This document shows, piece by piece, positions 15,001 through 18,000 of a stretch of DNA of 64,000 nucleotides. The stretch lies in the NCBI RefSeq assembly GCF_003790525.1, contig NZ_CP033635.1; one strand, written 5' to 3'. Origin of the DNA: Escherichia coli. Lineage in GTDB: Bacteria; Pseudomonadota; Gammaproteobacteria; Enterobacterales; Enterobacteriaceae. The position numbers are program-made. Every line of letters starts with the position of its first letter. Position 1 is the first letter of the stretch.

Positions 15001-18000
15001 GAGCCTGACGGGTGCAGCCGTTCAGCGGATGCGTGGCGCAGACACGGGACTGAAAAATGGCATTGCACAGGCTGCTTTTTCCGGCACCGGATTTACCCAT
15101 AATGCCAATAACGGGTTCGTACTGAATGACGCTGCGAAGATGTTCAAGGATTTTCTGGCGAATTTCTTCAGGAAGAAAGGTCAGATGTGACTTTACGTGT
15201 GCGGAGAGGGAAGAATGGCTGAATGACATACCGTTATCCTGTTGATTTCACTGAACCGGATCACATTAATCCGGCCTCTCAGTCAGGTAATATGGACGTG
15301 AAAATTTTTCCATTGACGGGAAGAAGAGTATGGCTAAAAACAAAGGTATCTGTCGGAATAAAAAATGCAGCAATCCTGTTTCAGAATTTGATGAGGCAAA
15401 TGCCCTGAGGTTATGTGATGATCATTATCAGTTATGGAAACGAAATAAAGAGAACCGTCGGGTCAGGAATATTTGTCGTATAATCAGTAAATATGACAAA
15501 AGTCTGGACCGGGAGATATTTGACAGAGTAATAGATGCTGCAAGAAATCAAACGGGAAAGAGAATTGTTGAGGACGCAAAAATATTACATCAATTGCGCA
15601 ATTCAAAGCAAGTAAGAAAAAGTCTTCATAATGGAGTACTCCGGTCACGGGAATGGCTCAATACACAGGAGTTACTGAGAAGAAAAAATATATCTGTTAC
15701 AGGTGACTCATTTAAATCTTACATAAAGGATATTGTCAGATTATATTGCTATAAGTTTCTCTACAGCAGAGAATATCTTAATGAAAACGCATACAAAAAA
15801 CAATATCAGAGAGTTATTAACCCCAGAGAATTTAATGTTCCGATACTTCAACTTGAAGTTGCATGGATCAATAATAATTGCCGTTCAAGTGATTCAAGCT
15901 CTGATATTATCATCCTTCCCAGGATGATAAGAAGAATGGTTGTATTTAATGATACGAAGATAAATAAACAATTAGAGGAAATGTTGGGGGGGATAGCACG
16001 AAAAAAAGTCGCAGTAAGGAATAAAGGCGGTCTCTATACCAGAATAAAAAAAGAAAATGATTTTCGTTCTATGGATAGATTTATGGTGGAAATCGAAAAT
16101 ATCATAAGGCCTGAAATATTTCCGACATCAATTTACCCGCCTTTTTCACTTTCATTTATCGAGAGAGAATTGCCACTACTGAATCTGGCGCACTCACAGT
16201 ACAAAAGAGCAATAAGTAAAAAAGTGGCGAATTCAATTTTTTATACTTTGCGAAAAACTCACGTGGCATTATGGCTGCATCTTGAAATGTTTGCTCTTGT
16301 GGCATTCATCAAACTGTATACAGGAAAAGGGTTTGAATTCATGAAAAACATGTGTGTATTTATAGATTATGATAAAGGGATAATAAAATCCACGCATGAA
16401 GAACTGCTGAGTGAAATTAAGTGTAACATTCAGTTGAATTTAAAGGTGAATCCTGATAATTTTCCTGAATTAATAGAAGTATACAATTCATGCTTTAGTA
16501 AAAATATATTGTTGTATGATGTTCAGGATGATGGTTTTAAATGGTGTTTATGATGTGAAAATATTAAATTTATATTACATTTTAATTATCGACAAAAAAC
16601 ACATAAAGAAATCTAAAGGGAATGAGCGTCAAATGAGCTGATATAGCGCCAGTTTGGTATGGTCATGTGATTTGATGATTAAAGCTTACGAATAATAACA
16701 CTCCTCTGTGAGCCATATAAATGAGCATGCCATAATCGTCAGTTCAGAGATAAAACTGACTGAATGATCTTATGTTATAGTAAGCAGTGTTTACCGGATA
16801 CGATGACTTATCTCTCTCACATCATATGGATTCACTTTCATGGGGTAAAGCGATGGGACTACAGACGCTGATTATGATGGTTTGCTGTAAAGTTAGCACA
16901 AGTTTTTGCTGTACAGAATACGGAGTAAGAAAAATAATTCCAGAGTAAATCTGCTCTGCTTTTGAACAGAAAAGATTCATGCTTACCGTGAAAAACTGAA
17001 ACCAACATTCAGTCTGCATGGATGTCTTAAGATGTTGAGAATGTCGGATATGGTATTATATACACCTTTTCCATTAGGTCCTTTTATGTTTTCATTAAGT
17101 CGTTTTGTATGTATTCCTCCAGTGATTCATTAGTGCCTGTTTACGCATTTACACACTTTCCCATTAATCTCCTTTAAATGTGTTTCATTACGCATTGCTG
17201 TACACATTTTTGAACTGATACACATCCAAGTTAGTAAACCTGTCAGTTCTGATTTTACGTTAACTAAATCAGTTTAATGCTGCTGTAAAACAATCCTTCC
17301 TGTTTAAGCAATCAATCTGCTATTCGATTTTACTGATGTGACGTTTAACCTTTCCTGAGCTTTGGTTGTTTGTGGTTTTTGGTTTGTGTTTCGACGTTAA
17401 GCTGAGAAAAGTATCTTTACGCTAAATCAACCCGAACTTTCCTGAGGTGATCTGACGTTCTTTTCGATGTGCTTACGACGATTCTGTTAAACGACTTTCT
17501 GGATGTTTTGATAACAATCAGATTGAGGCATTAACGATTCCTGACGTTTTGCTTTTTCATGTAAGGTCATTGTTTTCGTCATGATGTGGTTTTTCTTCTT
17601 GCATTGCGAAAGTGTGATGATTGGTTTTGGTTTTTTGATTCAGATGAGATTTACGTTATCGATGGTTAATCGTTTTTATGGTGCGTAGTGAAACGTAACA
17701 TTTTCGGGATGAGAAAATCGATTCTGATGGTGATGGGGATGATCGTGTTACGGCGTTATCTGTAAACAGGTTTTAAACGTGTCATTCGCATTCGTGATTG
17801 AGTTGTGTGATTAAGCTGTAGGTTTTGGCGTTGTTGTTGATTTGCATTGCCAGGAAGCGTTCTGGTTGCGTTTCTGGTGTTTTGTTCGAATGTTCTGTGG
17901 ATCCTTTTCCCTTCAGGCTTTTCTCGTCGTCCATGTCGTTTTTAAATCCATTCATGCTGTTGTTGCGTGTTTTGCTGCTGTGTGCAGGATTATCTTTTCG

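Follow-up and report, generated by a model that had tools for sequence, protein, structure and literature searches.

We analysed a 64,000-nucleotide stretch of Escherichia coli DNA (contig NZ_CP033635.1 of RefSeq assembly GCF_003790525.1, hereafter the window) that contains an integrative island, and within it an open reading frame (ORF) at 15330-16553 (+ strand). This ORF, here called ORF407, has an ATG start, encodes a basic protein of 407 aa and is divergent from a YfjP-like GTPase gene. We found that it occupies a slot whose position in the island is fixed and whose occupant is exchanged, and that it belongs to subfamily A of a small island-specific family apparently derived from zinc-finger HNH nucleases. 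A preliminary description of this DNA had called the gene an orphan with no motif that could be placed; both labels were wrong, as ORF407 has relatives and its family appears to descend from HNH nucleases. A reading of the gene as optional or unrelated cargo was not borne out, as the same family fills the slot in every sampled island with this GTPase backbone. We tentatively favour a reading, held at well short of even confidence, in which ORF407 is a non-catalytic nucleic-acid-binding module that provides specificity to, or regulates, the Rep/AlpA arm of the island.

The exchange of slot occupants was apparent from sister islands, for which E. coli genomes were searched with the GTPase gene plus ORF407. 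A related GTPase gene was present in 1,886 of 5,426 complete genomes, 969 of these with ORF407, and in many other carriers the GTPase gene was still 88-89% identical at the nucleotide level. Blastn homology to sister loci broke off on the left at window position 15304 (15314 in locus L017), just past a -10 element and about 20 bp ahead of the ATG, and in three independent sister loci it began again on the right at exactly 16931. These breakpoints delimit an exchangeable unit, 15305-16930 (+), consisting of a 5' leader, ORF407 and a 377-bp tail. The flanks of the slot were 83-93% identical among E. coli sister islands, and the occupants were only ~20% identical to each other. A fixed slot, a single family, a sharply bounded cassette and this degree of divergence on such flanks therefore point to a specificity determinant under diversifying pressure. 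Synteny and correlated ORF and GTPase identities had suggested vertical co-divergence of ORF407 with the GTPase backbone, an explanation that we dropped because in E. coli 88-89% identical GTPase genes adjoin family members of ~20% identity.

At least four cassette types were found in the slot: A (ORF407), C, D1 and D2. Type C, present in 463 genomes, encodes a 376-aa protein which shares with ORF407 the N-terminal Cys3His module and a C-terminal LYNSFF motif; by hhalign it belongs to the family over its full length (99.2%, E = 1.6e-19), with identities of 18-23%. Type D2 encodes a 320-aa family member (hhalign 97.4%, E = 1.3e-11) without zinc module and linker, paired with a convergent 284-aa gene. 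Its whole cassette was found in 185 genomes and partial or mosaic matches in 741, so further mosaic slot subtypes exist beyond the four described; some of the partial matches to this L021-type cassette were 80-90% identical over 28-31% of the query. Type D1 (319 + 267 aa, 43 genomes) has a D2-like layout, also lacks the zinc module and shows weak similarity to the family. Two types can coexist: the genome of strain APEC E19035 has separate islands with type A and type D2.

The partner genes of the cassettes without zinc module (6450-7304 (-) in L021 and 9015-9818 (-) in L017) encode proteins of 267-284 aa, and the D1 and D2 partners are homologous to each other at 20% identity. The C-terminal ~40 residues of the 284-aa partner matched an NCBIfam RepA/CopB-like regulatory model (E = 7.2e-5), and weaker matches of the partners were to RHH_1, RepB-RCR_reg and RepC. 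The partners probably end in a ribbon-helix-helix (RHH) domain. That D1 and D2 lack the zinc module and bring an RHH-like partner suggests that the DNA-binding part can be supplied in trans.

The ancestry of the family emerged from a divergent subfamily B (P0034, P0038-P0045), with which ORF407 is homologous over its full length. The strand-strand-helix segment of subfamily B, which reads for example LEVSHRYPNSKGGANCSANMLISPSRINRMI, follows the pattern LE[VI][SC]H.YP..KGG.N....N....P..INR, and its spacing H-x2-P-x4-G-x5-N-x8-N is what we take to be that of canonical HNH. P0038 matched phrog_8660, annotated as 'HNH endonuclease', over residues 31-201 (E = 8.8e-7); five of six subfamily-B members matched PHROG 1271 (HNH endonuclease), and PHROG 1035 (endonuclease VII) aligned on the motif. 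When subfamily-B fragments without zinc fingers were searched, HNH/EndoVII PHROGs were the sole functionally annotated matches (E = 0.005-0.4). Further weak matches at the motif were to Pfam HNH_4 and HNH_5 and to the HNH region of Cas9d, and a comparison of P0038 with phages gave one weak match (E = 0.7), to an annotated HNH-like phage gene. A profile of the motif region found no HNH match among PDB sequences, and among 5.8 billion proteins the subfamily-B profile recovered just one more cluster (P0045) and connected with no annotated HNH family. Overall, the tools lent moderate support to the assignment of subfamily B to HNH.

In ORF407 the equivalent segment is degenerate (residues 173-204, LQLEVAWINNNCRSSDSSSDIIILPRMIRRMV; 15846-15941, +). 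An hhalign comparison of subfamilies A and B (E = 3e-30) aligned W179, D192 and R201 with the His, Asn and Asn of subfamily B, so that W179 stands for the catalytic His, D192 for the structural Asn and R201 for the metal-binding Asn. E176 and P197 are retained, and the P...GG turn is absent. Replacements are also seen beyond ORF407: the general-base His column holds W, F, Y or K in subfamily-A members, E in type C and Q in type D2, and the two Asn columns hold D and R in every subfamily-A member. An AlphaFold2 (AF2) model shows strand-strand-helix secondary structure at the segment. ORF407 itself, whole or as motif fragment, matched no HNH profile in Pfam, NCBIfam or PHROG. Because an HNH profile match was obtained only with the sister subfamily B, we regard ORF407 on sequence grounds as derived from the HNH superfamily and not as a functional member of it, and classical HNH catalysis is unlikely because His, Asn and Asn have become W179, D192 and R201. 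Types A, C and D2 have lost the classical catalytic residues but remain under selection, so the function probably requires binding and not HNH-type cleavage.

An active DNA-processing enzyme with an atypical site, which nicks or cuts the island origin or a packaging site, or a homing-type nuclease which moves the cassette, would also make use of the HNH ancestry. Such an enzyme would accommodate the residues that are invariant across subfamilies (E176, R147, Y149 and others), the adjoining rolling-circle Rep-like gene, and the sharp cassette edges, which resemble homing-endonuclease gene replacement. However, the general-base His and both Asn are replaced throughout subfamily A, the fragment from the window matched no HNH profile and no nuclease fold was recovered, and we consider an active nuclease unlikely.

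Loss of catalytic residues could alternatively mark ORF407 as a decaying or functionless remnant of an HNH gene, all the more as the surrounding island decays in relatives (frameshifted genes in strain Ch1). The gene was found in 974 of the 5,426 complete E. coli genomes and was full length in 967 of the 974. It falls into two allele groups, one at >=99% identity in 35 genomes and one at ~91% nucleotide identity in 933, UTI89 among them; the ratio of nonsynonymous to synonymous substitution rates (dN/dS) between the two E. coli alleles was 0.28, and neighbouring genes gave 0.21 and 0.37. Because the frame is maintained in nearly all genomes and dN/dS is low, ORF407 is a genuine protein-coding gene under purifying selection and no chance ORF. 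These values, together with the many motifs conserved across 21-37% identity and the conserved promoter, strongly disfavour a remnant, which we hold to be highly improbable.

The annotation and composition of the gene largely agreed with the preliminary description. The proposed feature at 15230-16560 did contain a gene, although its start took in a 100-bp intergenic region: the ORF begins at 15330, 100 bp from the divergent GTPase gene (14345-15229, -; 294 aa; Era/Der-type GTPase model matches; RefSeq 'GTPase family / YfjP family GTPase'). The RefSeq label for the ORF407 gene is 'hypothetical protein'. The claim of a single low-GC gene was correct, as one ORF of GC 0.34 lies beside the GTPase gene at 0.55 and the downstream Gp2-like gene at 0.53, with third-codon-position GC of 0.31 against 0.57 and 0.55. 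The reported richness in Lys, Asn and Ile was likewise evident (K 9.3%, N 8.1% and I 9.1%, against 2.0, 2.4 and 6.5% in the GTPase), as was the N-terminal C-x4-C-x15-C-x2-H pattern, formed by C8, C13, C29 and H32. The isoelectric point of the protein is 9.6 and that of its linker 11. All homologues had GC contents of 28-37%, and in six loci the adjoining GTPase or WYL gene had 45-58%; in these loci low GC is therefore a maintained family trait and not a sign of recent import. The AF2 model (predicted local distance difference test, pLDDT, 79; predicted template modelling score 0.68) ends in a helical domain of ~180 aa which matched no known fold.

The ORF407 family comprised 26 representatives among 1.84 billion proteins and is confined to Enterobacterales integrative islands; tblastn of plasmids found no member. 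The Cys3His module (15351-15425, +) was modelled at pLDDT 75-89. Its four ligands were invariant across 15 full-length homologues down to 21% identity (alignment A2), and two N-terminally truncated subfamily-B members in alignment A3 are without it. Four metal ligands at fixed spacing, the pattern of a Cys3His zinc module, suggest that ORF407 binds zinc. The metagenomic homologue P0018 has two tandem copies of a C-x4-C-x15-C-x2-HY module, and subfamily B (P0034, P0038, P0041) carries a second, different Cys/His motif, C-x2-C-x11-C-x3-H/C, behind the first; the N-terminus is thus built of metal modules whose number varies. Many further motifs are kept among homologues at 21-37% identity. Direct searches with ORF407 gave no match in Pfam, NCBIfam, PADLOC or PDB sequences, and the best PHROG match, phrog_1189 (E = 0.043), was not significant. 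No paper describing the family came up in literature searches, whether by accession or by island gene names. The UniRef name of homologue P0016 (A0AAX3CP38), reverse transcriptase, was rejected as unsupported: P0016 has no Pfam domain on record, and ORF407 has no RVT match and no YxDD in its sequence.

The conserved part of the divergent intergenic region (15230-15304) contains a palindrome and a -10-like element, as aligned across seven loci (alignment A6). The palindrome, CCGGAT-N7-ATCCGG at 15256-15274, lies upstream of GTAATAT, which is invariant in the seven loci from several genera; the -10-like TAATAT is at 15288-15293 and stands 34-49 nt ahead of the ORF start in the loci compared. The cassette begins just downstream of this element, which is kept in all seven. 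A promoter function of the TAATAT region is inferred. The palindrome arms vary by locus yet stay complementary in UTI89, Citrobacter and L006; as 5-bp inverted repeats are common by chance, only arms of 6-8 bp at a fixed position were counted as evidence. The palindrome could form a hairpin or act as an operator that overlaps the -35 region. Its loop contains TTGACA in Citrobacter and L007.

In the mechanism that we propose, a widespread Enterobacterales integrative island always contains a hypervariable module, and ORF407 would be one of its alleles. Descended from a zinc-finger HNH endonuclease, ORF407 would act as a non-catalytic nucleic-acid-binding protein, expressed from the conserved promoter that lies in the divergent region between it and the GTPase operon. 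It would regulate or give specificity to the downstream replication-excision arm, in the manner of an immunity or copy-control function, with a different specificity for each of the ~20%-identical cassette types. We favour a regulatory role because the gene heads the rightward Rep/YfjJ/AlpA arm behind a conserved promoter, because the protein is basic, and because an RHH partner appears to be supplied in trans in other types. That the protein binds DNA, what it regulates and why the cassette types are so diverse are all things that we infer.

Several observations weigh against this proposal. The arguments for a regulatory role are positional and compositional; no helix-turn-helix or other recognised regulator fold was found in ORF407, and 407 aa is large for a repressor. 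A fold search on ORF407 did not confirm a beta-beta-alpha-metal domain and recovered no nuclease fold. The scores behind the RHH assignment of the partners are weak to moderate. Within the cassette we saw no cognate repeat or operator, and the palindrome cannot explain type specificity because it lies in the conserved flank and not in the cassette. Identical cassette types can occur two to four times per genome, which counts against strict incompatibility. Finally, an arms race would account equally well for the hypervariability of a slot in which K-12 carries defence genes.

This last point leads to the explanation we rank second, anti-phage defence or abortive infection, in which the protein would sense phage and block it, the cassette types would be arms-race variants, and the two-gene types would be sensor/effector or toxin/antitoxin-like pairs. 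The preliminary description had pointed to variable cargo including RnlAB at the equivalent position of K-12 CP4-57, and this was correct: abpB, abpA, yfjM, rnlA and rnlB lie between yfjJ and yfjP. Its placement of the gene at the junction of two conserved modules was also supported, the junction being replaceable and occupied in K-12 by anti-phage genes, AbpAB and RnlAB. Immunity genes typically show such extreme divergence between alleles on a conserved backbone, the ancestor was a nuclease, subfamily B adjoins type I restriction-modification (R-M) genes, and AT-rich composition is common in defence islands. Elements of this class, with an integrase, AlpA, an HUH Rep-like protein, a RadC/ArdB/CbtA module and a defence payload, have been described, and such islands have been proposed as phage-satellite-like vehicles for defence systems (PMC12458937, PMC12595487); the ORF407 family is mentioned in neither paper.

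However, defence models gave no support: PADLOC-DB v2.0.0 yielded zero families at E <= 1 for ORF407 (type A), the 376-aa type C protein and the 319 + 267-aa type D1 pair, a scan that did not include D2. Types A, C and D2 no longer have the nuclease residues, the slot always holds the same family and not a patchy mix of unrelated systems, and the type I R-M, McrBC, TIR and GmrSD genes of these elements lie elsewhere (Klebsiella, Citrobacter, L007). The preliminary description had set its defence proposal against possible homology to a known mobile-element protein, and here the outcome was divided: HNH endonucleases are a class typical of mobile elements, but the nuclease residues are gone. A defence role is a doubtful though serious possibility on this evidence.

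The divergent pairing of ORF407 with an operon encoding an ArdB-like antirestriction protein and RadC would also suit an establishment or anti-defence factor, expressed with that operon on host entry, whose variants counter different host systems. Hypervariability is typical of counter-defence genes too. The idea draws on position alone, since ORF407 showed no similarity to known anti-defence proteins in the libraries searched, and we regard it as quite unlikely, ranking it below even an active nuclease.

Bordering the island as a whole are a SetB-like transporter gene (7154-8338) on one side and a LacI/GntR-type regulator gene (21959-22978) on the other. The leftward operon reads, GTPase first, GTPase, DUF932, antirestriction (ArdB-like), RadC, DUF987 and YeeU/CbtA. 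The first recognisable gene downstream of ORF407 on the same strand is an Inovirus Gp2-family (HUH rolling-circle Rep-like) gene (18136-18867, +), so annotated in RefSeq and matched by tblastn to Gp2/YfjJ of other loci. Behind it follow a YfjJ-like gene (19182-19784; tblastn to other loci) and an AlpA gene (19853-20089; excisionase-family match and tblastn). At the right end of the island is a ProQ/FinO-family RNA-chaperone-like gene (20856-21200, -; 113 aa, E = 2e-13), whose counterpart in strain Ch1 carries a frameshift annotation. In Ch1 the near-identical island (L001) is annotated with frameshifts in the DUF4942, CbtA toxin, antitoxin-like and ProQ/FinO genes and with only an integrase fragment. 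Similar decay in the window, in the regions 9115-9765 and 10927-11989, is suggested by two ORFs that overlap (10927-11415 and 11345-11989). Mobility of the island has probably been lost, though ORF407 is intact.

The same arrangement was observed in other genomes and genera. The order GTPase(-), family member(+), then AlpA and Gp2-YfjJ was found in L002, L004, L006, L007 and L010, and Klebsiella, Citrobacter and three metagenomic loci from Enterobacterales had homologues of 26-37% identity in the same slot. The neighbour in L008 and L009 is a WYL gene in place of the GTPase gene. The element type that carries subfamily B is different: there the family member follows integrase-AlpA-DUF3987(-ParM/StbB), and R-M genes or the end of the element come next. 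In K-12 (L016) the AlpA/YfjI/YfjJ module and the YfjP operon are co-oriented, whereas in the window (14345-20089) and its relatives the two arms are divergent; K-12 and window-type islands therefore share modules and not architecture.

To the right of ORF407 is a gene-free stretch of 1.6 kb, which consists of the cassette tail (16554-16930) and a conserved backbone (16931-18135). The 377-bp tail showed no repeats and no stable RNA fold (z = +1.26). The backbone, 1.2 kb of AT-rich, strongly T-skewed non-coding sequence of ~37% GC between the cassette and the Gp2-like gene, forms the right flank of the slot and falls within a single blastn segment, 16931-21500, that is 92.9% identical to L018. 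It had no Rfam match and no AlpA or Gp2 remnant. We considered the whole stretch as a noncoding RNA or a decayed gene and rejected both, given these null results for the backbone and the lack of repeats or a stable fold in the tail. Between the window and UTI89 alleles it diverged to ~76%, close to neutral. The sole RefSeq annotation in 16931-18135, made in some strains, is a minus-strand 82-aa ORF at 17782-18030. The backbone could be an origin or a long regulatory leader.

A broader proposal, which we put forward as speculative and somewhat more doubtful than a defence role, is that this HNH-derived pseudo-nuclease family is the hypervariable specificity or 'identity' determinant of satellite-like, defence-carrying islands, which are very common in Enterobacterales. 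If so, each cassette type would set the signal (a helper phage, a co-resident island or a host state) that switches on the Rep + AlpA excision arm, or would itself sense phage, and the family would constitute a new kind of master switch for this island class. The traits that define it are a constant position at the junction of the island arms, sharply bounded cassette exchange, and forms ~20% identical on near-identical backbones. This pattern of a specificity determinant would hold whether the role is regulatory or defensive, and the family offers an easily cloned handle on island triggering or protection. ORF407 also presents a clear case of an HNH nuclease scaffold under selection after the loss of its catalytic residues. 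We regard as new here an HNH-derived protein in a new role and architecture, belonging to a previously undescribed family.

Comparison with known systems places ORF407 close to several of them and within none. With HNH nucleases that carry N-terminal zinc modules (PHROG 8660 and 1271; endonuclease VII, PHROG 1035) it shares an N-terminal Cys/His module and, in the AF2 model, the strand-strand-helix secondary structure, but it lacks the His/Asn/Asn residues, has its own C-terminal helical domain of ~180 aa and is restricted to one island slot. With the AbpAB and RnlAB cargo of K-12 CP4-57 it shares the slot between the AlpA/YfjJ and YfjP GTPase modules, yet there is no sequence or profile similarity, and unrelated systems occupy the slot there whereas one family does so here. 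RHH replication-control repressors (IncFII CopB/RepA2-type, RepB-RCR_reg) resemble only the C-termini of the D1 and D2 partners, which at 267-284 aa have a large N-terminal part in addition, and the cassette of the window itself encodes no such partner. Lambdoid phage immunity regions and the Stl master repressors of Staphylococcus aureus pathogenicity islands (SaPI) are heteroimmune regulatory modules, and offer a functional analogy only. The likeness lies in the divergent promoter position between two units and in sharply bounded, divergent alleles on a conserved backbone; the difference is that ORF407 is without a helix-turn-helix repressor fold, is much larger and appears to be HNH-derived.

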